Assembly: GCA_043801445.1 (NCBI GenBank) | Contig: JAZDMB010000046.1 | Coordinates: 19,253-83,252 of the forward strand | DNA from: Planctomycetota bacterium | GTDB taxonomy: Bacteria; Planctomycetota; MHYJ01; JACQXL01 | DNA: 64,000 nucleotides | Direction of reading: 5' to 3' | Part shown: positions 7,173-63,849 of the stretch, one piece after another | Position numbering within the stretch: position 1 is the stretch's first letter | How the letters are laid out: the number at the start of each line of letters is the position of its first letter | Made by a program: the position numbers and the translations under genes | Notes under the pieces: model-generated | What the model saw: the letters and a program-made list of their open reading frames with translations, nothing else | Databases searched by the model: none | What the model was told of the DNA's origin: nothing

Positions 7173-9254
7173 ATGCGGATGCAGTTAATAAATATCCTCA
7201 AACGGATTTATAACCCGTTGCTCACCAAACAGTTTAAAATAAGTTTGATAGCAATGGTTTATCTTTTAATCTGCTATACGTTATTGAGGCTGGGATTCTT
7301 TCTGGTAAATCACGGTTTTTTCAGTGATATTGGAACCGGTGAAATTATCCGGGCATTTCTCTACGGCATCCGTTTTGACATATCTGCCCTATTAATGATT
7401 AACGGCCCATTATTACTGCTTTATAATCTTCCGCTTAAATTAATCAATCGGAAATATTTCAAACTTATTCTACTGGTTCTATTCTTGTTATTAAACCTGA
7501 TATTCATCACCGTCAACTTAGCCGATTACGGTTATTTCCCGGTCACACAGCGCCGGTTGATGTCTGAGATTTATATTATGTTTGTTGATATAATGAGAAT
7601 GTTACCGAGTATGTTCTCTGATTACTATTATCTGTTTTTAGCGCTGGCAGTTGGCGGAATGATATTTATATTTACTGTCTGGCGCCTATTTAAAAAATTG
7701 GATAACTTAATCATCTACCAGCCCAATTTATGGCGAGATATTGGATGCCTTATCCTGTTAATCGGATTAATCACAATAGGAGTAAAAGGCGGTATTCAGA
7801 GAAAACCTATCCGTCAGGCGCATGCCTTTTGGTCTGCCAATCGGATTACCGGATACCTTACTCTGAATTCATCATTCACTACAATAAAAAGTCTCTTCCA
7901 AGCCGGTTTACCGCGTCATAGTTTTTTACCTGACAACGAAGCATCAGCAGAGTTAACCGCAATGCTGTGCCAGAAAAATGAGCAGATGATTGATGCGCAA
8001 TATCCTTTTCTGCGCCGGAAATCATTCCCGGACGCTCCCCAAAAACCAAATCTGGTTGTCTTCATTATGGAAAGCTGGACAGCAGATTATATCGGCTCTC
8101 TCTCCGGACAGACGCCATCCGCCACTCCTTTTTTTGACAGTCTTACAATAAGCGGCACGCTATTTACCAACTTCTTAGCCAATGGCCACCGTTCGGTCGT
8201 GGCTATACCATCCATTCTTGATTCTATTCCCGGTTTTTACTCCAACTCTCTTTCAGGCGTAGCCGCAGCGAAGTCCCGATTATTTCGGGGAAAAGGAAAC
8301 TCATTTATAGAATCACAATCTGAAGTAAATAACTACATCGGATTAGGTAACATATTGCTCAAGCAAGGGTACACCACCTCGTGTCATCATGGTGCCCGCC
8401 GAGGAGCGCTGGGTTTTGATATCCATTCGAAACTTTCAGGTTTTCTCAATTATTATGGTATGGAGGATTACCTGAAGTCCGGCGGTTCCAGCCGTGATAC
8501 GGTTTGGGGCGTGTGGGATGAGGAGTTTTTCCAGGATGCGCTATGCCGGATGGATAAATTCCAATCGCCTTTCTGCTCGGTGATATTCTCGCTCACTTCT
8601 CATGAACCCTTCAGGATTCCGCCGCACCGGCAAAAGTTATTCGAACAATATGCCGATGAAACCAATCTCCAGATAGCATTGCGCTATTCCGATTACAGCC
8701 TGCAACAATTCTTTCAAATAGCCCGGAAAAAACCATGGTTTGAAAACACTATTTTCATTATTACAGCCGACCATACCACTCATTCCAAAATGAATAATTT
8801 CTATTCCTGCTTCCATATCCCCCTATTGATTTATGCGCCCCGATGCTCCGATACGGGGCGTCCCGACCGAAGCGTCGGAGCGCCCGGATTGATTGCCCCG
8901 CAAATATGCAATACAATCGGCTCTCAGGTGGATATCCTGCCCACCATTCTGGACCTCTTGCATATTTCTGCCACTCACAACTCAATGGGTTCCTCGCTCA
9001 TGGATACTGAACGCACGCATTATACCGTGGTTACTGACGGTTCTATGTATGGAATTTTCAACAACCAATTTGTCCTGCTCAACGACCTTGAGAAAAACTT
9101 CGGATTATATAATTATCATCTCGACCCTATCTTGAAAAATGATATTCAGATAGAATATCCGGACGCAGCGCAAAAGTTAAGACACAGTCTCCTTGCCTAT
9201 ATCCAGTCTGTGTCCAATGCCATTGCCCAGAACAAAATCTGCCCGCCCCGTTAG
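7173..9254 (+). CDS. LTA synthase-family membrane sulfatase/phosphotransferase
   Basis: N-terminal TM segments; NLVVFIMESW, SHEPF, ITADH and SQVDILPT motifs; carries repeat insertions. Confidence 0.85.
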   Translation: MRMQLINILKRIYNPLLTKQFKISLIAMVYLLICYTLLRLGFFLVNHGFFSDIGTGEIIRAFLYGIRFDISALLMINGPLLLLYNLPLKLINRKYFKLILLVLFLLLNLIFITVNLADYGYFPVTQRRLMSEIYIMFVDIMRMLPSMFSDYYYLFLALAVGGMIFIFTVWRLFKKLDNLIIYQPNLWRDIGCLILLIGLITIGVKGGIQRKPIRQAHAFWSANRITGYLTLNSSFTTIKSLFQAGLPRHSFLPDNEASAELTAMLCQKNEQMIDAQYPFLRRKSFPDAPQKPNLVVFIMESWTADYIGSLSGQTPSATPFFDSLTISGTLFTNFLANGHRSVVAIPSILDSIPGFYSNSLSGVAAAKSRLFRGKGNSFIESQSEVNNYIGLGNILLKQGYTTSCHHGARRGALGFDIHSKLSGFLNYYGMEDYLKSGGSSRDTVWGVWDEEFFQDALCRMDKFQSPFCSVIFSLTSHEPFRIPPHRQKLFEQYADETNLQIALRYSDYSLQQFFQIARKKPWFENTIFIITADHTTHSKMNNFYSCFHIPLLIYAPRCSDTGRPDRSVGAPGLIAPQICNTIGSQVDILPTILDLLHISATHNSMGSSLMDTERTHYTVVTDGSMYGIFNNQFVLLNDLEKNFGLYNYHLDPILKNDIQIEYPDAAQKLRHSLLAYIQSVSNAIAQNKICPPR

Positions 9255-9346
9255 AAAGACCCGTAATGAGTTCGTCAGACAAACTATTGTTCTCACCTTT
9301 ATTATTGGACTTTCTAACGGGGTGAAGATGCATCAATGTCTTGCTA
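9243..9346 (+). mobile_element. MITE-like element, CCCCGTTAGAAAG...CTTTCTAACGGGG plus a 3' tail (copy 1)
   Basis: 13-bp perfect inverted repeats bounding 9246-9322; flanked by CTGC/CTGC; same length as the purL copy. Confidence 0.7.
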
Positions 9347-13056: not shown

Positions 13057-13282
13057 GGACACAGATAAATACAGAGACTTCGCCTACACAGATTAACAGA
13101 ATTTATTTATAAGGAAACCATGAGACCAAGAAAATTACTCCTGTTTTTCCTGGTCTCCTTATAGAAATTATCCGCCTGCCCGACCTTTCGGTCGTTCGGG
13201 CGGGTGTCTATCTGCGTTCATCTGTGTCCTATGTGTCTCTGCGTTCTCTGCCTGCCCTCCGAAGCATTGCATAGGAGGGTGG
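13057..13282. repeat. Nested palindromic repeat cluster
   Basis: CACAGAT...ATCTGTG outer arms enclosing TTATAAGGAAACC...GGTCTCCTTATA and a 30-bp element at 13175-13204. Confidence 0.8.
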
Positions 13283-16679: not shown

Positions 16680-16988
16680 CTTTAATCTTAGTAATCTGGG
16701 GACATATGCGCCCAGTGCGTTTCTACCGATACTCGCTGATGGTTCGCTATGCCCGGTCACGGTAGTGTTTCCCGGGCTCGTGGAACAGACCACACATTTT
16801 TTTAGCCCTTTATCTATGCGTCTTTGCGGGCACGGTTTTTATAAAATGCACTGATTCCGGGTCAGCCACGAATTTACCGCACCTGCCCGAATGAACATTC
16901 GTTCAGGCGGGGAGACACAGAGAACACAAAGAAATCAGTCTGCTGTACCAAGAATTTACCAGATTTCCACTCCTTAGAGTTAATAAAA

Positions 16989-18092
16989 TCATTCACCTAA
17001 TTGAAGTTCAATCTTACTTGGTATTTCCCTTACCTTAATAGGCATCTGATCTAATTTCCGTGCCTCTTCATAGGCTGATAATGCTTCTTTAATTCTGCCT
17101 AAATTAAAAAGAATATCAGCTTTCTTATACCAAGCCTCTGTATACTTGGGGTCAATTTCTAATGCTTCTTCACAGGCTGATAATGCTTCTTCATTTCTAC
17201 CTAACTTTACAAGCGTAACACTTTTACCATACCAAGCCTTTTTATGCTTCGGGTCAATCTTTAATGTTTCTTCACAGGCTAATAATGCTTCTTCATATTT
17301 TTCTAAATTAAAAAATATATTACCTTTCTTGTACCAAGCCTTTTTATACTTCGGATCAATCTTTAATGTTTCTTCACAGGCTAATAATGCTTCTTCATAT
17401 TTTTCTAAATTAAAAAATATACTACCTTTCTTATACCAAACCTCTTTATCCTTGGGGTCAATCTTTAATGCTTCATTGCAGGTTGATAATATATCTTCAT
17501 TTATTTTATAATTAAATGGATCTAATCTCTGTGCTTCTTCATAGGCTGATAATGATTCTTGATATCTGCCTAACTCTCTAAGTACACCACCTTTATTATA
17601 CCACGCATTTTTATCCTTGGGGTCAATCTTTAATACTTCTTCAAGTGCTAATAATGCTCCTTCATTTCTGCCTAACTTTACGAGTGTAACGCCTTTATTA
17701 TACCATGCCTTTTTATCATTTAGATCAATCTTTAATGCTTCATCAAAGGCTGATAATACATCTTCATCTATTATTTTACTATTAAATGGATCTAATCTCT
17801 GTGCTTCTTCATAGGCTGATAAGGCTTCTTCATATCTGCCTAACTTTACAAGTGTAACACCTCTATTATACCATGCCTTTTTATCATTCGGATCAATCTT
17901 TAATGCTTCATCAAAGGCTGATAACGCTTCTTCATTTCTGTCTAAATTTAAAAGTGAACAACCTTTATCAAACCAAGCATTTTTATCTTTATTCACATTT
18001 AATTCACTATTTACCAAACCTTTAGAAGCACATCCAGCAAAAATACTACCAGCTATTAATAACATGCCATAAATTACTATTATCTTTTTCAT
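16989..18092 (-). CDS. TPR-repeat lipoprotein
   Basis: FAGC lipobox; 34-aa AWY.KG..L..LGRYEEAL repeats. Confidence 0.9.
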   Translation of the reverse strand: MKKIIVIYGMLLIAGSIFAGCASKGLVNSELNVNKDKNAWFDKGCSLLNLDRNEEALSAFDEALKIDPNDKKAWYNRGVTLVKLGRYEEALSAYEEAQRLDPFNSKIIDEDVLSAFDEALKIDLNDKKAWYNKGVTLVKLGRNEGALLALEEVLKIDPKDKNAWYNKGGVLRELGRYQESLSAYEEAQRLDPFNYKINEDILSTCNEALKIDPKDKEVWYKKGSIFFNLEKYEEALLACEETLKIDPKYKKAWYKKGNIFFNLEKYEEALLACEETLKIDPKHKKAWYGKSVTLVKLGRNEEALSACEEALEIDPKYTEAWYKKADILFNLGRIKEALSAYEEARKLDQMPIKVREIPSKIELQLGE

Positions 18093-18284: not shown

Positions 18285-20402
18285 TTACTCTGCATTCTGG
18301 TAACAAATCTTCATAAACGCTTCAGACAATCTCTTACAAAGCGCTATATTTCCTTCACTTTCTCCTAAATCAATATCTGATAACTTAATTGTATCACGAT
18401 TCTTCTTTAACCATACACTCCATAACTCATAATCTGATTTAGTTGGTACATCATTGCTAATACTGGCCAATAAACTCAAGGTTATAAAAGAATCCTCTCG
18501 TACCTTCTCAAAATATCCCCCTTCTGCTTTCAGTAGGACAACCAGATATTCTACGCCTCTAACGTCTCTATTCCGGAATAAGCATTCGGCTAAAGCCCGC
18601 CTTGCCCTTAAAGAATCTTTTAGATTCTCATGCTGGAAAAGATTAGCAATGACATCACTATCTTCCTTTGTCAAATATGTTGGGATAAAGGTCGCACCCC
18701 TAAAGCGGATCTGTTCATCTTTGGTAGTTTCCAACAGTTTTACTAAAGGAGGCATCAAGTCCCGTCCGCATAACCCTATCCACATCTGTGCTTCTGAAGA
18801 CGAGAACCCTTTCATTTGACCGGTCAAGACACGTTGTAGTCCTTGGCTACAGGCATCCACTGCCATTTTCTCATTAGTTTTCTTCAGACGCAAGTAAGCT
18901 ACCACAAATTCACCCGGGCTATACAACGCCCCTTTCGTCAGGAAATCACTGAGTTCTTGCTCCTTCATACCCTTAATTTTATCATAATTGCCAAAACTCG
19001 CCCTTAACACAAGATTTTGCAGATATTGCTCAAAGAAATTCTCCGGTGCTTTTGGTGTGGCTTTACTAACACTGAAGCATTTCCAATTGCCATCCTTAAA
19101 TTGCCAAAATCCTTCTTGAGAACCTACCCAGATAGAACCATCTTTGCCTTGAATAATTTGACGACAAAGATTATTTCCAGGTATTTCTTTCCCCTTCAGC
19201 ATACTTATCTTATTACCCTTGATTACCACAGGTTTATCCCTCAATATTAGCCAGATATCTCCATTACTTGCTTGCAAATATGATTTAACTCCCCCATGCC
19301 CTTCAGGAGCAAGGTGGATTTGTTCCCCATCAAATCTGAACCCACGCCAATTATCAAATAGCCAAATACTGTTATCCGACGAATAAAATGACACATTCAC
19401 AGATATTTCATCATAGGGTTTAGGAAAAGAAATTTGCTTCCATTCTTTGCCATCCCAAGATGTTGCGCAACCTCTACCGAAAAACCATAATTTACCATCT
19501 TTGGTTTCAAGAATCTGGCAGGTATAACCAGGGTCTTTGTACCATTTATAGGTATTATCAGCAAACTCGGCTACACCGTACATATCACCCACCCACACCG
19601 TCCCATTAATTGCCTGATAGAACGCTATCGGACCACTATTCAGCAATTTCTCCCACTTATTCCCATCAAACCTGAACAATGCAGGCCAGACCTTTGCCCA
19701 AATCATACCGTCCCGGTCAAGATACCAATCATAGAGCATGGACTGCATCTTGTCATCCACAAAAGCGTTTTTCCATTGCTTACCATCAAATAGCCGGCCA
19801 CCCCTTTGTCTAAGAAAAATATATCCGTTTTTAGATACCAGCCAATTCTTCCAGACGGTTTTATTTGCAATAAACGCCTCATATTGAGCGGCAATTGCCT
19901 CTTCGTCAGAATTAAATATATCATGGAGGACATTATTCTTGAATATGGCTGAACCGTTAAATGTATCTGCCCAGATGCGTCCATCAGCCAGAACATAAAT
20001 ATTCTTCACGGTATTCTTAGTCCATCGCTGAAAATACCCCTTGCCGGTTTCGGTTCTTGGTTGAGGTGTTTTTCCGCCAGCGAAATACTCTTTTTCCACA
20101 TTTTCAGGCGTCCAGTCTTTTTCAATAGGTAATATTTGATATGCTGATTCTTTAATATTCCACACCACCACACCACAAGAAGTCCCGGCGACAACATAAT
20201 TATCTCCTATTAATGCAAGACATCTCACATCGTCATAAGAAGGCTTCTGCATAAGGTCACCATAGTTAAGCGAAAGATACTTGTCATCATACGGCATATC
20301 CGTTAGGAATACATGATCATTATTATCCCCAGTAAACGCGAGAGCTGAAAATAATGACAGTAAAACCAACACTCTAACTGATATGCTAAAAAGTTTTATC
20401 AT
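18285..20402 (-). CDS. Secreted beta-propeller protein with C-terminal HEAT-like domain
   Basis: Signal peptide; repeated DG.IW/FDG..W blades. Confidence 0.6.
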   Translation of the reverse strand: MIKLFSISVRVLVLLSLFSALAFTGDNNDHVFLTDMPYDDKYLSLNYGDLMQKPSYDDVRCLALIGDNYVVAGTSCGVVVWNIKESAYQILPIEKDWTPENVEKEYFAGGKTPQPRTETGKGYFQRWTKNTVKNIYVLADGRIWADTFNGSAIFKNNVLHDIFNSDEEAIAAQYEAFIANKTVWKNWLVSKNGYIFLRQRGGRLFDGKQWKNAFVDDKMQSMLYDWYLDRDGMIWAKVWPALFRFDGNKWEKLLNSGPIAFYQAINGTVWVGDMYGVAEFADNTYKWYKDPGYTCQILETKDGKLWFFGRGCATSWDGKEWKQISFPKPYDEISVNVSFYSSDNSIWLFDNWRGFRFDGEQIHLAPEGHGGVKSYLQASNGDIWLILRDKPVVIKGNKISMLKGKEIPGNNLCRQIIQGKDGSIWVGSQEGFWQFKDGNWKCFSVSKATPKAPENFFEQYLQNLVLRASFGNYDKIKGMKEQELSDFLTKGALYSPGEFVVAYLRLKKTNEKMAVDACSQGLQRVLTGQMKGFSSSEAQMWIGLCGRDLMPPLVKLLETTKDEQIRFRGATFIPTYLTKEDSDVIANLFQHENLKDSLRARRALAECLFRNRDVRGVEYLVVLLKAEGGYFEKVREDSFITLSLLASISNDVPTKSDYELWSVWLKKNRDTIKLSDIDLGESEGNIALCKRLSEAFMKICYQNAE

Positions 20403-21086: not shown

Positions 21087-22763
21087 TTAGAATATCACGG
21101 CTCCTTTATATTCTCCAAAGACATCTCTAAGACTCTGCGAGATTTCTCCTAATGTGGCATTAGATTTGATTGCCTCAATTATCGCCGGCATAAGGTTGTC
21201 TTTGGATTGAGCAATTGTTTTCAGGTTGTTTAATGAATCAATTACCAGTTTGTTATTTCTGTTTTTCTTATACCGGTTAATTTTGGCTACCTGTTTTTTC
21301 TGTAATGCAGATGTAACCTTCAATGTATTGATTTTATACGATTCCTTAGCGGTAAATTTATTAACACCGACAATGATGCGCCGGTTATTTTCTATTTCCT
21401 TTTGATATTCATAGGCGCTCCTGGAGATTTCTTTCTGATAGAATCCGGTTTCAATGGCTTTGGTCGCACCGCCCAATTTGTCAATTTGATTGATATAATC
21501 AGTTGCTTCAATTTCTAATTTATCCGTGAGATTTTCCAGATAATATGAACCGCCCAATGGGTCAATTATCCGGCTGACCGCTGTTTCATAAGCGATGAGT
21601 TGCTGTGTTCTCAACGCAATCTGGACTGATTTTTCGGTCGGTAATGCCAATGCTTCATCGCGGGAGTTGCTATGCAGGCTCTGTGTTCCGCCAAGCACCG
21701 CAGTCATCGCCTGTAAGGCAACACGGGTAACGTTATTATCCGGCTGTTGAGCGGTGAGGGTGCAGCCGGCTGTCTGGGTATGGAAACGCAGCATCATTGC
21801 CCTCGGGTCGGTTGCCTTGAATCTTTCCTTCATAATCTTTGCCCAGAGCCTTCTGGCGGCGCGGAATTTGGCTATTTCTTCAAAGAAGTCGTTATGGGCA
21901 TTGAAGAAAAAAGATAATCTTTTACCGATTTCATTTACCCCGTTAGAAGCGTCCGATGCAGAAGCATTAAGATTACCGGTAGATTTATCCTTTTTATCGT
22001 GTTCGCTTCTAACGGGGTTTATATCAAGCCTCCGTTCGAGGCAGGTTTTTACATAACTGATTCCGTTGGCTAATGTGAATCCGATTTCCTGAGCCGCGGT
22101 TGAGCCGGCTTCCCTGATGTGATAACCGCTGACGCTGATAAAATTCCATTTCGGCAGGTTCTTAATGCAATATTCAATAGTATCCACAACCAATCTCAAG
22201 GACGGTTCAGGCGGGAATATATAGGCGCCGCGGGCAATGTATTCCTTGAGGATGTCATTCTGGACTGTTCCGGAAATATCAGCCACTTTGACTTTTTGTC
22301 TTTCTGCGAGGACCAGATACATTGCCAGGAGAATGGCGCAGGTGGCGTTGATGGTCATTGAGACGCTGATTTTGTCAAGAGGAATCTCGTCAAACAGGAT
22401 TTCCATATCAGCCAGAGAAGAGATATTGACGCCGGTTTTGCCTACTTCGCCGAGGCTCATCGGATGGTCTGCGTCATAGCCCATCTGGGTGGGTAAATCA
22501 AAGGCAATACTCAGACCGGTTTGGCCACGTTTGAGCAGGAATTTACAACGACGGTTGGTTTCTTCAGCCGTTGCGAATCCGGAGTATTGCCGCATTGTCC
22601 AGAGTTTGCCTCGATACATCGTCGGATGAACGCCACGAGTGAAAGGATATTCACCGGGCAAGCCAAGTTTATCCAGACCCTGAACAGAAGGGCTGGGTTC
22701 AGCAATGTCTTCCCCGTCTCGACGGGATTCCTTTGTCGGGAGTGGCGAATAAAATTGCTTCAT
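21087..22763 (-). CDS. Methylmalonyl-CoA mutase, substrate-binding subunit (split type)
   Basis: [34 protein letters not shown]; no B12-binding domain. Confidence 0.92.
21938..22017. mobile_element. 80-bp MITE-like element in frame in the mutase
   Basis: CCCCGTTAGAAGCG...CGCTTCTAACGGGG flanked by TTTA on both sides; 84 nt = 28 aa. Confidence 0.85.
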
Positions 22764-49061: not shown

Positions 49062-49141
49062 CATCGTTAGAAGCGTTCATAAAGGTTGGTTAGAACATAG
49101 TAACGGTTTAGAATTATTGCTTTTGTTCGCTTCTAACGGGA
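49062..49141. mobile_element. Intergenic 80-bp MITE-like element (same subfamily as the mutase insert)
   Basis: CGTTAGAAGCG...CGCTTCTAACG with a 52-nt interior. Confidence 0.7.
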
Positions 49142-49168: not shown

Positions 49169-52100
49169 TTACCACCTTAATGGTTTCTGCCATGATTCCT
49201 TAAGATCTGATAGCGATTCATCAATGATTAACGAATTATCCAAGCCTTTAACTTTAAGCATTTTCTCCTTAATGGTTTTACCTATCAATCCGAAAGGGCA
49301 ATCAGCCATAAGTTTTTCAAAATCCGCCTTATGTTCAGGTTTAATTTCTACCAAGAAACGAGAATTGGATTCTGAGAAAAGAATAATATCATCCCTAATG
49401 GCGGTTAGCGATGAACGGTTAGCGGTGAGCGCCGCTGACCGCTCAAATGGCACAGCGGTAGCAAGGCACTGCTGCATCTTCACCCCGTTAGAAAGTCCTC
49501 CATTATGTTTTAATTCATCACTTATATCTTTATCATCATTCGTGTTCTTTCTAACGGGGCAGGCGGAAATATCAATCTCAAGTCCGACATCACCGGCAAA
49601 AGCCATTTCAGCTGCAGATACTGCCAATCCGCCTTCTGATAAATCATGACAGGCAGATACAAAACCCTTACGAATCGCTTCTGAAACAGCAATCATTATC
49701 TGACGTCCAAGCACAGCATCCACCTGAGGCACATTCTTTCCCAAATGACCAAGCAGGTCATAATAATGCGAACCTCCTAATTCATTATTGGTCATTCCGA
49801 CAATATATATTAAATCGCCGGCTTCTTTGATGTCCATTGAAACAGTTTGACGCACATCATCAATCACAGAAATAGCTGATATTAATAATGAATATGGAAT
49901 AGAAATAGTCTTTTTGGCTGAAACCCTATATTCATTATTGAGACTATCTTTTCCCGAAATAAAAGGTGTTTCATAAATATGTGCGATATCATAACAACCT
50001 TGAGCGGCTCTGACAATAGCGCCTAATTGTTTGGGATTACCCGCATTCCCCCAGCAAAAATTATCCAATAAAGCGGTCTGTTGAGGATTGCCGCCTACGG
50101 CCACGATATTTCTTAATGCCTCATCAATTGCAGATGCGGCCATATGATATGGGTCTATATCGCCATATTTTGGATTCATACCGTTTGATACGCAAAGTCC
50201 GCGATAAGAATCTAAAATCGGCCTGAAGACACAGGCATCTCCGGGCCCATCATTATTCTTGCCCTGTAACGGCTTAAGCACGCTGCCACCCTGAACCTCG
50301 TGGTCATATTGCCTGATGACCCATTCCTTAGAACATATATTCAGCATTGCCAGAATTTGATTTAAGATTTTACCAAAATCTTGAGAAGGCATAAATTCAG
50401 GCTCTTTTAACTTAGGCTCAGACCATTCAGCCGATAATTCCATCTTCGGTAAACCGTTATGTAGAAACTCCATTTCCAAGGTGCCCACTAAATTACCGTT
50501 GTATTTCAAAACCAATTTTTTATCATCGGTGAATCGTCCGATAATAGTGGCTTCTACACCTTCACGATTAAACAATTCCAGAATATCTTTCTCGTATTTG
50601 GGCGGAACAGATAAAACCATCCGTTCCTGCGCTTCAGAAATCCAGATTTCAGTATAAGACAACCCCTGATATTTAAGAGGCACTTTTCCCAGTTCAACGA
50701 TACATCCAAGGTCTTCAGCCATCTCCCCAACAGCGGAAGAAAGCCCACCGCCACCGCAGTCAGTTATAGCAGAATAATAACCCAAATCTCTTGCTCGCAG
50801 TAAAATATCCATCATCTTTTTTTCTGTGATGGCGTTCCCAATCTGGACCGCACCGGAAGAAATCATTTCAGACTTTTCATCCAATTCGAGCGATGCAAAA
50901 GTAACACCATGAATACCGTCACGACCTGTTCGTCCGCCGACTAAAAGTATCAAATCACCGGACTGCGAATGCTTGAAACATTTATTCCTGGGCATAATGC
51001 CTATCGTTCCGCAATATACAAGCGGATTAGCCAGATACCGGTCATCAAAATATAGCGCTCCATTCGCTGTCGGTATGCCCATCCGGTTACCATAATCCCT
51101 GACACCGGATACAACACCTTTGAATATCCTTTTAGGATGAAAAACACCATCCGGTAATTTTTCTAACGGGAAAGATGGTGAGGCGAAACAGAAAACATCA
51201 GTATTCAAAATAGGTTTAGCACCCAACCCGCAACCAAGCACATCCCTAATAACTCCGCCGATACCGGTCCCGGATCCGCCATAAGGCTCTATTGCCGAAG
51301 GATGATTATGAGTCTCCACTTTAAAACAAACCGCATTATTCTTATCGAATTCAATAATGCCGGCATTATCCTTAAACACAGAAATACACCACGCCTTATT
51401 TAATTCGTTGGTTACCCGCATCACGGTTTGTTTTAGAAGATTATCTATCTTTTGGGTAGTGATTTTACCGCCAGCTGATTCCACCTGATATTTAATAATG
51501 CCTCTCAATGTTTTATGCTTGCAATGTTCACTCCAAGTCTGAGCAATAGTTTCCAGCTCAATGTCAGTCAGATTGCGTTGCTGTTTAAGAGAATAGTCCC
51601 TGATGGTTTTCATCTCATGCACATTTAATGAAAGATTCCGATTCTTACTGATTGTAAAAAGAGCATCATCGGACACATCAATTAGAGCTATCGTATCTAA
51701 TTTAAATGAATACAAAGGTGCATCCGGTATTTCGGCGAGCATTTTATGACCAATAAAAACATTCTCTATGACGTTATTGGCAAATATCTTTGAAGAAAGC
51801 CGAAGGATATCATTATGTGAAATATTCCCGTTGATATAATATTTACGACCTGTCCGAACAGATTTGATTCTGAACCCGGAATCATTAATGGCTTTAAGAA
51901 GACTTGATTCTACCGGGTCCATTACGCCCGGTTTAAGAAATACCGTAACCACCTGATGAGCGTCATTCTTAAATATTTCCAACGGTTTATTTATAGAATA
52001 TTCTTGAACCGTCTTATCAGAAAGAATATCGCCGGAAATAATATCGACATCACCATCAATTAACTCACCGTCCAAAACATAGATAGAAACAAAACGAACA

Positions 52101-54895: not shown

Positions 54896-55184
54896 ACAGT
54901 ATCCATCAAATAGAACGCAGATTTTCACAGATAAATGCAGCTAATATAAGAGGTTTTGAGTGAATTACTCTTTCAATTAACTGTATTCTATATTAATAGT
55001 ATCCCGTAAGGGATAGAACAGATAAAATCCCCCTATTTCATCCTTTGTCAAAGATGAATTTACAAAAACTTTCGGTTAATAACTACTATAACAAAGACAC
55101 TAAATCATTTTTTTTGTTTACTATAGGTTAAGACTTTGTTAACGAGGTAACATTTTCCATACCTGATGCCGATTTTGTGCATAA

Positions 55185-55449
55185 TAGACCGTAAGTCCGT
55201 GGCAAATAGACCGTAAGTATCTGGCACATAGACCATAAGTATCTGACATATAGACCGTAAGTATATGGCACATAGACCGTGAGTATCTGGCATATAGACC
55301 GTGAGTATTTGGCATATAGACTGGGAGTATGTGGCATATAGACCGGGAGTATGTGGCATATAGACTGGGAGTATGTGGCATATAGACTGGGAGTATATGG
55401 CACATAGACTGGGAGTATGTGGCACATAGACCGTAAGTAGTTTGGCAGA
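55185..55449. repeat. Tandem array of 12 x 22 bp (TAGACYGKRAGTATNTGGCAYA)
   Basis: Units start every 22 nt from 55185 to 55427, with no spacers. Confidence 0.92.
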
Positions 55450-55507
55450 TACACTTAATACTGACCTTAAATACCCCCCTGCCCTATCCTACCCCCTCTG
55501 TCTCCTT

Positions 55508-60852: not shown

Positions 60853-61015
60853 CCTTAAAATCAGCCACCCCGCTTGGGCGGGACTCCGCTGTCGCTTCGC
60901 AGACCCGTCCCGATGAATATCGGGAGAACACAGAGAAAGAAATTAAATTTAATTATCCGTGTTTATCTGCCTGCCCGACCTTTCGGTCGTTCGGGCGGGT
61001 GGTTACGAAATATTA

Positions 61016-61873
61016 TTATTGCGGATTTAACAAAACCACATCGGTTTTACAATCAACTATTATTGGTTTTTGTCCGGCACCGAGTACGCCACCGAACCAA
61101 AGATTGATTCTGACCCGATTACCATTACTACCGCTGGTAACCAAATTATTATTCTTATCACGGAGACTGAATATCGGGTCATTTGCTCCATCATTATTAA
61201 TATCAAGATATCTATTAGTCGCAACGGTTATAATATTACCGCCTAAATTTACCTGTTCTTGAAGAACACCCCCTGCATTATATACGTATTTCCATAAATT
61301 ACCTGTATCAAAAGAATCTATAATATCTCCATCTCCATTATAATCTAAATGCGTGGTGGCTTCAACAAGATTGGGAGTTGGATTATTCGGCACAAAATCA
61401 TATATAATATACCAGTTCTGATTGTCATTTGCGCCCCAGTATATTGCGCCTGTTGCAGGATCCCAGTAGTTACCTCCGACCTTTACCGGAACTTTCAGGG
61501 TAAGAGTCGCATAATTATTAGATGTAGTGGGCATACTTCCTGTTATAACAAAGCATTCATTTATATCTTCTTTTATAATGTCTGTTAGTCGCATCCCTTC
61601 AGATTCCAAGTAAGACTCCATTGCTCCCTCAGTATATATATTCTGTGAACTTATAATAACATACATTGCTCCAACAAGCATACCGGTCAGTATGGTTACT
61701 ACTATCATAAGCTCAATCAAGGTAAACCCCGTTAGAGATAGGTCGCCCGTAGGCGACCGTTCTGTCTTATAAACAATAGTTTTATCCTTCTGGGACGGAT
61801 TATATAAGAGTTTACCAATAGTTGCTTTAGACATCTCTAACTGGGTAAACCCTTCTTGCGAATTAGTATTCAT
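61016..61873 (-). CDS. Prepilin (PilW/GspJ-like) with a repeat insertion in its leader
   Basis: GFTLIELMIV motif preceded by a 41-aa insert. Confidence 0.8.
   Translation of the reverse strand: MNTNSQEGFTQLEMSKATIGKLLYNPSQKDKTIVYKTERSPTGDLSLTGFTLIELMIVVTILTGMLVGAMYVIISSQNIYTEGAMESYLESEGMRLTDIIKEDINECFVITGSMPTTSNNYATLTLKVPVKVGGNYWDPATGAIYWGANDNQNWYIIYDFVPNNPTPNLVEATTHLDYNGDGDIIDSFDTGNLWKYVYNAGGVLQEQVNLGGNIITVATNRYLDINNDGANDPIFSLRDKNNNLVTSGSNGNRVRINLWFGGVLGAGQKPIIVDCKTDVVLLNPQ
61727..61845. mobile_element. 119-bp MITE-like element at the prepilin G-F-T site
   Basis: CCCCGTTAGAGAT...ATCTCTAACTGGG flanked by TAAA/TAAA. Confidence 0.85.
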
Positions 61874-61875
61874 AA

Positions 61876-62358
61876 TTAGTATCTGTTATGCCTGGAAAAA
61901 ATAGTCCTTGTTACATACTCATTATATACGCTTGCACTAGTATTCCCTTTTATTCGCCATCTAACAGTAATTTTAATGTCATAAAGTTTACACGCGGATA
62001 GATTATTATGACAACTACTACCAGAACCATCAAGATTGGTGCCGTGGTCGCTGCATTGAATTTGTTCTATCCTGCCGGCTTGTGTCCAGCCGGTAGGAGC
62101 AGTCAAACCGGTCACCGCAAAATAAGTTCCGCTTATACCATGAATAGACGTAAAATCTTTGCCTCTAACCTCTTCTAGTTGAGCCGCAGCAGCATTGCGA
62201 GCAATATCATATTCTCGTGATGTTTCTTTCTGCAATACCCCCCCACTCAATACCGATAATAAAGTCAAAGTTCCAATGGTCAACAATACCATTGCTATTA
62301 TTACCTCTATAAGTGTAAAACCTGAAAAACAAACTTCACTGGTCGTATGATTTCTCAT
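61876..62358 (-). CDS. Prepilin (PilV/GspI-like)
   Basis: GFTLIEVIIAM. Confidence 0.8.
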   Translation of the reverse strand: MRNHTTSEVCFSGFTLIEVIIAMVLLTIGTLTLLSVLSGGVLQKETSREYDIARNAAAAQLEEVRGKDFTSIHGISGTYFAVTGLTAPTGWTQAGRIEQIQCSDHGTNLDGSGSSCHNNLSACKLYDIKITVRWRIKGNTSASVYNEYVTRTIFSRHNRY

Positions 62359-62581
62359 AATCTTTTATTTAACAATACAGAAAATTATAAACACGAATAG
62401 CGCGAATTCGGTGAACAACACGAATATTAAAATATAATTCCTTATTCGCGTGATTCGTGTTCCTATTTTTCTTATCCCTTAAACCCTTTGTAATTATACA
62501 CACCAGACAGACCGTTGTCAATAGAAAAATCAAAGAATCTATATAAGCAGCTAAAAGTTCCAACTTTTTACTTGCTACTTG

Positions 62582-62685
62582 CCCCGTTCGAAAGTACCAT
62601 AATTAGAGATAAAGATAAACATATTAGTCTTTCACCCCGTTCGAGAACTTTCTAACGGGCTGAAGATACAGCAAAAACCTGCTCT
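62582..62685 (+). mobile_element. Degenerate copy of the tailed MITE-like element
   Basis: CCCCGTTCGAAAG...CTTTCTAACGGGCTGAAGATACAGCA. Confidence 0.65.
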
Positions 62686-62718
62686 GTTTTTTACTTTTAA
62701 CTTTATGATTATAGTGCT

Positions 62719-63849
62719 ATGCTGATTCAAAGATATGTAATGCGTGAATGGCTTATAAGTTTTCTGATAGTAACCACTGTCTTATTAGCCATCGTTCTCC
62801 TGATAGTTCCCTTTTTCCAGTTCCAGAAATATACGGCTCTTGATGAAGAATTTGTTTTCAAGGTATTACCGTATTTTGTTCCCATTTCTTTAGTGTATAT
62901 AATTCCCCTGGCAGTATTGCTTTCCTGTATCTTTGTTTTCGGACGGCTTTCAGAAGATAACGAAATTCTGGCAATAAAATCATCAGGCATACCGCTGTTA
63001 CGAATAATCAGACCCATATTTCTCCTGACAATATTTTTATCTATCGGAATATTCATGATAAATACCCAATTAATACCATATTGTTATTCTAAAACCCGCC
63101 AGTTAACTATCAACGCATTTAAGAATCGCATATTTACAGACTCCCGCGGAGCGGACGAAATAAAACTACCTGAAGGGAAAATCAGTTATGCTAACCGCGA
63201 TAAGGGAATCTTTAACTCCGTCCGCTTACTTCAATTCGACTCCAACAAAGACCAATTGGTGAAAGAAATTAACGCGCACCAGGGAAAATTCGAACTTGAT
63301 GAGGAAAATGCCCAATTCTCATTAAACCTCAATAAGGTCTATACCACCCTCTGGGAAAAAGAAAAACAAACCAATCAATCGACGAAAGAAATTAATAACA
63401 AACGCATTATCCCGCGTATGATCGCATCAGGCGGCCTTATTTACCGGTTGGACATATCCAATCTATTTGCTCCTTCCCGCAAGAATTTTGCCAGCCTGAC
63501 AAACAATGAATTGAACCTACTGCTTATCGAATATAAAAACAATCCCACCAAAACCAGACAGGTCCTTTCAAACAAATACCAACGCTATTCATCCGGACTG
63601 ACACCTTTAATTTTTGCTTTTATCGGCATACCCATCGGAATATTAATCCGTAAAGGCAGTCGTGTGGCAGGCGTTGGCATCAGTATGCTCCTCGTATTCG
63701 TCGGTTATTATCCTCTAATGATGTTAGGTAATCTCATCGGCACCAAAAAAGATATTTTACCGGTATCTATCTCTGTCTGGCTAAGTGATATTGTTTTCGG
63801 ATTAGTCGGTCTGATATTATTATATTACCTCATAAAACATGATAAATAA
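62719..63849 (+). CDS. lptF: LptF/LptG family LPS export permease
   Basis: IPLAVLL...FGRLSEDNEILAIKSSG; six TM helices. Confidence 0.85.
   Translation: MLIQRYVMREWLISFLIVTTVLLAIVLLIVPFFQFQKYTALDEEFVFKVLPYFVPISLVYIIPLAVLLSCIFVFGRLSEDNEILAIKSSGIPLLRIIRPIFLLTIFLSIGIFMINTQLIPYCYSKTRQLTINAFKNRIFTDSRGADEIKLPEGKISYANRDKGIFNSVRLLQFDSNKDQLVKEINAHQGKFELDEENAQFSLNLNKVYTTLWEKEKQTNQSTKEINNKRIIPRMIASGGLIYRLDISNLFAPSRKNFASLTNNELNLLLIEYKNNPTKTRQVLSNKYQRYSSGLTPLIFAFIGIPIGILIRKGSRVAGVGISMLLVFVGYYPLMMLGNLIGTKKDILPVSISVWLSDIVFGLVGLILLYYLIKHDK

Follow-up and report, generated by a model that had tools for sequence, protein, structure and literature searches.

A miniature inverted-repeat element in the leader of a minor prepilin gene of a Planctomycetota bacterium, and related inserts at prepilin cleavage sites of other bacteria

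The stretch of DNA analyzed here (64,000 nucleotides, hereafter "the window"; positions 19,253 to 83,252 of contig JAZDMB010000046.1, assembly GCA_043801445.1) comes from a Planctomycetota bacterium whose 2.31-Mb assembly (G000) is in 62 contigs at 40% G+C, and carries a minor prepilin gene whose leader is interrupted, in frame and free of stop codons, by a 119-nt mobile-element-like insert, the last codon of which recreates the glycine of the prepilin cleavage site. The insert is a class B member of a dispersed family of miniature inverted-repeat transposable elements (MITEs), the longest copy of which encodes a small GIY-YIG nuclease. The explanation that we consider likely is that a MITE has landed in the prepilin cleavage site, that the host peptidase cuts after the rebuilt Gly, which would make the insertion a low-cost one and let it persist, and that the recurrence of such inserts in other prepilins is owed to target preference and selection.

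The gene and the parts of the insertion are as follows (window positions; in sequences, a slash marks a junction or a cleavage site):

61016..61873, minus strand: minor prepilin gene with the insertion, 285 codons plus stop (from the open reading frame (ORF) list, the translation, TIGR02532 and orthologues)
61019-61726, minus strand: mature part of the minor prepilin gene
61850..61873, minus strand: original leader codons MNTNSQEG, with the ATG at 61871-61873 and the original Gly codon GGG at 61850-61852
61727..61845, minus strand: 119-nt non-autonomous element, a class B MITE of the GIY-YIG-nuclease element family, in-frame reading (T)QLEM...DLSLTG
61833..61845, minus strand: gene-proximal terminal inverted repeat CCCAGTTAGAGAT, one mismatch to CCCCGTTAGAGAT, encoding ..QLEM
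61727..61739, minus strand: distal terminal inverted repeat ATCTCTAACGGGG, whose final GGG is the new Gly(-1) codon
61846..61849, minus strand: upstream copy of the target-site duplication TTTA, identical to the downstream copy
61723..61726, minus strand: downstream copy of the target-site duplication TTTA, whose TTT encodes the predicted Phe(+1) of the mature pilin
61741..61758, minus strand: subterminal GC hairpin GGTCGCC-tacg-GGCGACC, a perfect 7-bp stem 2 nt from the distal repeat, encoding RSPTGDL

The translation begins MNTNSQEGFT-QLEMSKATIGKLLYNPSQKDKTIVYKTERSPTGDLSLTGFT-LIELMIVVTIL..., and the minus-strand DNA across the junctions reads GAA GGG TTT A/CC CAG TTA GAG ATG ... CTA TCT CTA ACG GGG/ TTT ACC TTG ATT GAG, with GGGTTTACC present twice on that strand (61844-61852 and 61721-61729) at a spacing of 123 nt or 41 codons, which is the total addition, lying in frame and without a stop between two Gly-Phe-Thr copies. 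The doubled Gly-Phe-Thr and the 41 added residues, proposed in a first-pass annotation made from the letters of the window alone, are thus borne out by both the translation and the DNA, and the new Gly before FTLIE does come, as that annotation had it, from the element end, being the terminal GGG of the distal repeat. The prepilin cleavage/methylation model TIGR02532 matches residues 49-69, i.e., behind the second Gly-Phe-Thr (17.4 bits, cut-off 16.3), PF07963 falls at the same place at 16.8 bits (under its cut-off of 21.2), and the G/F-x-x-x-E cleavage/methylation motif followed by a hydrophobic helix is present. The 13-nt terminal inverted repeats (consensus CCCCGTTAGAGAT) are complementary to each other at 12 of 13 positions. 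Two of the three frames are free of stops on either side, giving TPLE and NPVRD from one end and SLTG and ISNG from the other, and each of these four read-throughs occurs in natural proteins. No nuclease ORF lies within the 119-nt copy, and Rfam returned no match at E<=1 for window positions 61000-63000.

That the extension is an insertion, another first-pass claim, is established by two empty sites. The closest database orthologue without it (P0004, 77% identical) starts MNINTQKG/FTLIEVM, and in a genome of the same genus (G001) the orthologue, with the leader MNTHLQKG/FTLIE, is uninterrupted at the target codons (...CAA AAA GGA TTT ACC TTG ATT GAA, i.e., ...AAAGGATTTACCTTGATTGAA), both leaders resembling the original MNTNSQEG of the interrupted gene. 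The notion that the long leader is native to this pilin, for which the open reading frame speaks and nothing else does, is refuted by these empty sites and by the approximately 60 dispersed copies showing the same ends and duplications.

The same gene of G001 has, moreover, a class B copy of its own: 134 nt long (locus L002, contig C58 of G001, 1837-1970), it lies 18 nt upstream of the empty site, inside codon 2 (ATGAA/element/TGAATACA...), with the target-site duplication TGAA, the old start now reading MNPVRDD-stop (a 7-codon ORF) and the annotated protein (P0003) beginning at an ATG inside the element. An orthologue from another genus (P0007, read from its protein sequence only) runs MKTINSGFT(PLEI...41 residues...TSLTGFT)LLEVIIV, while its own orthologue in G009 has no insert (MKTINSGFTLLEV / MKTINSGFTLLEVIIV) and is identical to it at 205 of 235 residues outside the insert. 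Going by these comparisons, the same codons of orthologous genes were hit independently at least twice, and the leader of this gene three times. Two further proteins, P0005 and P0006, share the start MKHNSNIK with an ORF inside another class B copy of the window genome and have the junction ..RVTG; judged from the protein sequences, their inserts are probable ones and are not counted here.

As regards the family within this genome, the window contains CCCGTTAGA 10 times where 0.34 occurrences would be expected, and none of 100 shuffles reached 10, so the repeat is not a chance one; genome-wide, the end motif YTCTAACGGGG is found 124 times against 5 for the reversed control, and 64 end pairs spaced 60-132 nt (approximately 60 copies) are present in the whole assembly, 37 of them, wherever located, having a length that is a multiple of three. 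Class B elements, the prepilin insert included, are ~119-125 nt long with ends CCCCGTTAGAGAT...CCTATCTCTAACGGGG and a subterminal hairpin, the stem of which varies in sequence with the pairing retained: of 58 class-B-type ends, drawn from this genome and from retrieved loci, 18 are abutted by a perfect stem, and 12 stem sequences are represented among these. A perfect 4-nt direct duplication flanks 10 of 15 class B pairs (TCAA three times, TTTA and TAAA twice each, TTAA, TGAG and CTTG), which, along with the identical flanking copies at the prepilin gene, upholds the first-pass reading of TTTA as a duplicated target. Twelve reconstructed empty sites give the target as TT[T/G]A, and the next base is C in 7 of them. 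All the features of a MITE family are thus found here, namely terminal inverted repeats, a target-site duplication, many small dispersed copies, a longer relative coding for an enzyme and empty sites.

Class A elements are shorter (~75-81 nt, ends CCCCGTTAGAAGCG) and have additional conserved flanks. As a perfect 4-nt duplication was found for only 2 of 22 class A pairs when the same boundaries were applied, class A differs from class B in its true borders and in the way it spreads. Within the window, relatives of this class lie at 9246-9322, 21938-22017 and 49483-49559 (~77-80 nt, ends CCCCGTTAGAA[A/G]...), with partial ends near 49132, 51162 and 62651; their flanks (GCTTCTCAG / CTGAGAAGC or GTGAAGATGCA on one side and GCAGG on the other) can pair with the repeat into a local hairpin.

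Several class B copies elsewhere in the genome are also found at gene starts. In the copy at C35:66649-66768, AAGGAG-N8-ATG opens a frame that continues into a signal peptide of the lipoprotein type (..SLTG-FTLLCIWMFLIVFSGC), those on C36 (near 82) and at C40:6605-6725 read into other ORFs, and the one at C29:57242-57441 ends 8 nt before the der start codon. A TTGACC-17 nt-TATAAA-like spacing is seen at the left end of some copies, which may accordingly bring a promoter with them; a promoter or small-RNA module as the principal explanation of the family was nevertheless dropped, given that the flanking 4-mers are direct rather than inverted and that empty sites exist. A search for a classical autonomous insertion sequence (end pairs 500-4000 nt apart) gave a single class-B-ended candidate, 1709 nt on C29, which encloses the GTPase Der and not a transposase. 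On the minus strand of C5 (54105), the upstream frame of a major-pilin-like gene reads ..SFSYTPSENENITITERSYMRK/GFTLIELM, in which "YTPSE" looks like what remains, after decay, of the left end of an old insert, and a new start codon stands immediately ahead of the cleavage site.

Inserts of this kind recur in the prepilins of other bacteria. The 16 genomes of the order contain 1215 element ends (67 for the control), nine of which abut Phe-Thr-x-x-Glu (one in G000, one in G006, three in G015 and four in G013), the reversed controls giving none. Eight prepilin-adjacent cases thus come from the 15 other genomes, and in four of these loci the ends could be paired, delimiting inserts of 117, 126, 126 and 195 nt, all in frame and all in different pilin genes; in the other four, no left end satisfied the pairing criterion. 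A scan of species-representative genomes with the pattern TCTAACGGGGTTYACNYTNNTNGAR (element end plus Phe-Thr-x-x-Glu) returned at least 129 matches in at least 117 stretches, whereas ~2 would be expected by chance (our own arithmetic, for uniform composition and 2 x 596 Gb). By a hand tally of 80 listed records (records rather than genomes, some genomes recurring), 28 belong to Omnitrophota, 19 to Planctomycetota, 17 to Patescibacteria/CPR (Candidate Phyla Radiation) and 8 to other named groups, with 8 unclassified. Inserts of the kind that the first-pass annotation had recommended searching for in other prepilins are thus found in several phyla.

Among the matches listed, to which the counts in this paragraph refer, a hydrophobic segment follows the motif in 123 of 129; of the remaining six, three are cut by the ends of their loci and three (L040, L089, L110) are not intact prepilins. 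A left end (no more than 2 mismatches, within 700 nt) was found for 113 of the 129, and these paired inserts (33-284 nt, 111 distinct sequences) have identical duplications in 96 cases and are multiples of three in 102, as compared with 37 of the 64 pairs of the window genome. As many as 98 of the 102 in-frame inserts are stop-free in the pilin frame, as opposed to none and 22 of the 102 in the other frames, the latter being the fairer control because frame 1 always meets a stop inside the repeat. Nested or tandem inserts within one pilin leader (P0019, P0056, L013, L057, L084) show the arrangement GFTPLE...SLTGFTPLE...SLTG/FTLIE, each new copy having taken the rebuilt site as its target. The suggestion that prepilins might be a systematic safe harbor for the family holds up well against the independent event in P0007, the eight further cases of the order, the at least 117 stretches and this in-frame, stop-free bias.

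The bias also bears on whether the interrupted gene is simply a damaged one, i.e., a young pseudogene, in frame by accident, whose extended leader prevents the protein from entering the membrane or being cleaved. In favor of this, the insertion looks young (a perfect target-site duplication and repeats matching at 12 of 13 positions), and cells can often do without a given minor pilin or have others in its place. The gene body is, however, intact and without stops, with 84% identity to the G001 orthologue over 236 residues of the mature part, dead genes would not maintain the frame and openness seen in the comparable inserts, and old inserts exist in which the upstream Gly has decayed while the downstream site is intact, all of which makes a damaged gene improbable.

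The course of events that we favor is as follows. A non-autonomous copy entered the TTTA of the Gly-Phe-Thr codons GGG TTT ACC of this minor type IV pilin/pseudopilin gene, and, as the element ends in ...CTAACGGGG and TTTA was duplicated, the right junction became Leu-Thr-Gly/Phe-Thr, a complete prepilin-peptidase site before the untouched hydrophobic helix. Since the added 123 nt keep the reading frame and contain no stop, translation from the old ATG would give a leader of 49 residues rather than 8. The precursor would still insert via its unchanged hydrophobic helix, and the host prepilin peptidase (a gene for which is present at C23:9470-9835; PF01478, 74.3 bits) would most likely cut after the Gly supplied by the element, at the site that abuts the membrane helix. 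A cut there would release the normal mature pilin, so that the insertion would cost little and persist.

Were the cut instead to take place at the first Gly-Phe, the mature pilin would retain 41 extra residues and would be a modified one. The first site does keep G-F-T-Q-L-E, including the Glu at +5, whereas the residues behind it (MSKATIGKLLYNPSQKDK...) are polar and do not form a hydrophobic helix that would place it at the membrane, and prepilin peptidases cleave at the membrane face, next to the helix. Furthermore, among the matches listed, the upstream Phe is preceded by Gly in 73 of the 102 in-frame cases and by another residue in 29, a loss that would be expected if only the downstream site were used and selection on the disused one were relaxed. 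We therefore hold cleavage at the first site to be very improbable.

The recurrence in prepilins would have two parts under the reading preferred here, the first being a modest target preference (TT[T/G]A plus C, which the Phe-Thr codons TTTAC satisfy) and the second, the removal by purifying selection of insertions elsewhere in coding DNA. In this genome, one of nine strict prepilin sites is occupied, with 69,779 TTYA sites and ~60 elements available, for which a weak TTKAC preference together with the removal of harmful insertions suffices, and homing is not required. Active homing would mean that the nuclease recognizes GG-TTTAC-C-like DNA, a look-alike of the element's own abutted ends (GGGG/TTTA/CCCC), and that it is directed to pilin genes specifically, instead of these being places where an insertion is simply tolerated. 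The site entered here, GGG/TTTA/CC, does resemble those joined ends, two or three neighboring pilin genes are occupied in several loci (e.g., L013, L018, L038, L054, L076), G015 has three prepilin-adjacent ends among only 36, and 39 of 100 long fusion proteins of the nuclease (see below) are prepilins. On the other hand, no G-run precedes TTNA in the 12 reconstructed empty sites of this genome, where the only regularity beyond the target is the C that often follows; most copies lie outside pilin genes, with 9 of the 1215 ends in the order abutting a prepilin motif; the family is also found in signal peptides, at gene ends (lepA) and before start codons; and the database scans, being conditioned on a prepilin context or a fusion, cannot serve as a measure of preference. 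Homing thus seems unlikely to us.

A single full-length element was found in the genome; it and three more distant nuclease genes are the following:

C12:55470-55748, minus strand: full-length element, 279 nt (275 nt plus the 4-nt duplication), ends the same as those of class B, target-site duplication TAAA
C25:22909-23130, C52:31518-31643 and C3:16327-16506: distant single-domain GIY-YIG genes

The ORF of the C12 copy (86 codons, MFYTY...RFLSLTG) reaches the last base of the element and has no stop codon of its own, the stop being the TAA of the duplication. Its 86-aa product is a single-domain GIY-YIG protein (PF01541 over residues 1-68, 54.5 bits, cut-off 22.6), the nearest solved relative of which is the UPF0213 protein BH0048 (1zg2, E 3.7e-9), and a tblastn search of the genome with it gave this one full copy, a 21-residue fragment and the three more distant genes. 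The family is a large one: 5203 cluster representatives match at E<=0.001, and 781 remain at the stricter E<=1e-10, the sizes being mostly 85-130 aa among the 150 matches listed. The full-length element sits in the last codons of lepA, so that LepA gains a C-terminal ..SKPR-stop from the element repeat. Two of the distant genes, those on C25 and C52, lie within ~600 nt of class A elements (C25:23511-23587 and C52:30945-31023), which suggests a second nuclease-repeat pair in this genome.

Proteins of at least 152 aa carrying this nuclease, at up to 81% identity, number 100, and 39 of them are nuclease-prepilin fusions; a search for long proteins sees fused forms only, and hence tells what fusions consist of and not how frequent fusion is. 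Classed by motif rules, the 100 proteins divide as follows:

34: ...LTG running directly into a prepilin motif
5: prepilin motif no more than 70 residues further on (nested second inserts, as in P0019 and P0056)
3: running into a TadE-like G/Qxx(L/T)E
12: running into a signal- or membrane-like segment
8: nuclease at the C-terminal end
19: other
19: without the end motif

A bolder proposal, which we put forward tentatively, is that the ends of the element are shaped for Phe-Thr-Pro-Leu-Glu and Ser-Leu-Thr-Gly/Phe junctions in either orientation, so as to be excised by the leader peptidase as "leader parasites". The stop-less nuclease of a full-length copy would then be translated from the promoter and start codon of the host as a pilin leader, the prepilin peptidase would free it into the cytoplasm, and the element would thereby borrow both the expression and the processing machinery of its host.

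Coming back to the likely explanation, i.e., a low-cost insertion processed at the rebuilt site, several points weigh against it. Where the precursor is cut, and whether it is cut at all, are predictions from the sequence, and the 49-residue leader is far longer than the 8-residue original and also longer than the leaders at the other strict prepilin sites listed in this genome. The G-F-T-x-L-E retained at the first site makes a cut there compatible with the sequence. With one occupied prepilin site in nine and approximately one of 60 elements in a prepilin, the case of this genome could, taken alone, also be put down to a chance landing. Conservation of the downstream Gly in the 129 matches is no evidence, since the search pattern demanded that residue. 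Finally, it is through the shared ends only that the nuclease is linked to mobility, and we infer the mobilizing agent and the manner of mobilization on that footing.

The upstream neighbor of the interrupted gene is:

61876..62358, minus strand: PilV/GspI-like prepilin gene (PF07963, 22.6 bits, cut-off 21.2)

This gene has an ordinary short leader (MRNHTTSEVCFSG/FTLIEV), and 2 nt separate its stop from the ATG of the interrupted gene. In front of it, the words CACGAAT / ATTCGTG are repeated at window positions 62380-62470, and similar words precede orthologous pilin genes in other genera (upstream parts of L003 and L004); they may be an operator of the pilin operon. GC-rich hairpin repeats of another kind (CCTGCCCGA..TCGGGCGGG) lie at 13168-13206 and 60963-61001 and are 97% alike, one of these repeats lying between the interrupted gene and its downstream neighbor, and related copies are seen at 16875, 43930, 43980 and 47481. 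Other repeats of the window are a run of 22-nt units in tandem, at least 10 of them, and one with a period of 102 nt, at 55140-55464 and 16946-18057.

Among known systems, the Rickettsia palindromic elements and other intragenic MITEs come closest in one respect, being, according to a review (PMC10969869), short non-autonomous repeats that lie in frame in coding genes and are translated. The likeness, that the element is inserted in frame and read as host protein, is a functional analogy only, since the Rickettsia elements, as described there, sit inside mature proteins, whereas the insert described here is in a leader expected to be cut off and recreates the processing site with its own end, and its family has 13-nt terminal inverted repeats, a 4-nt target-site duplication and an identifiable 86-aa GIY-YIG partner. 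The insert is thus best supported as an in-frame MITE, a known sort of element, albeit one placed in a discarded leader and rebuilding its processing site.

The Ssn proteins, single-domain GIY-YIG ssDNA nucleases with NTS/SRM hairpin repeats (Chenal et al. 2025, PMC11893778), resemble the family in being ~90-100-aa proteins flanked on both sides by their own dispersed repeat of tens to hundreds of copies, and their authors themselves liken the repeat-gene-repeat arrangement to an insertion sequence. The published SRM motif is, however, found neither in the element nor within 300 nt of the full-length copy and shows no genome-wide enrichment (9 matches, as compared with 4-7 in shuffles), so membership of the Ssn/SRM system is not supported by this defining feature. 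In contrast to the two separate hairpins described for Ssn, the two ends of the present element repeat one another in inverted orientation and come with a target duplication, and the best solved relative is the UPF0213 protein named above; insertion in pilin genes is not mentioned for Ssn in the available portion of that article. In the literature that we searched, in which subscription journals are thinly covered, mobile elements in prepilin leaders are not described, nor is a bacterial element with terminal inverted repeats and a target-site duplication that is built on a GIY-YIG nuclease.

Selfish gene insertions that are made phenotypically silent by their removal are familiar as self-splicing introns and inteins, which are removed after transcription or translation. 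The insert described here would likewise be silent through removal; the removal, though, would be carried out by the host prepilin peptidase at a site rebuilt by the element, with no splicing chemistry involved. If this is true, protein-level excision would be a third route to silent residence in genes beside introns and inteins, and a general way for selfish DNA to reside harmlessly in genes, as it is the cell itself that removes the insert. It would also explain many of the "long-leader" or "GIY-YIG nuclease-GspG fusion" gene models of uncultured Omnitrophota, Planctomycetota and CPR bacteria (P0019, a nuclease-pilin fusion, is named GspG by NCBI), the annotation of which should change. The inserts provide, in addition, natural evidence on the length and variety of prepilin leaders that are still, presumably, processed, and the full-length copy points to a very small (275-nt) element with terminal inverted repeats and a target-site duplication that is built on a GIY-YIG nuclease. 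Discarded leader peptides, taken together, look like a regular refuge for this selfish DNA.

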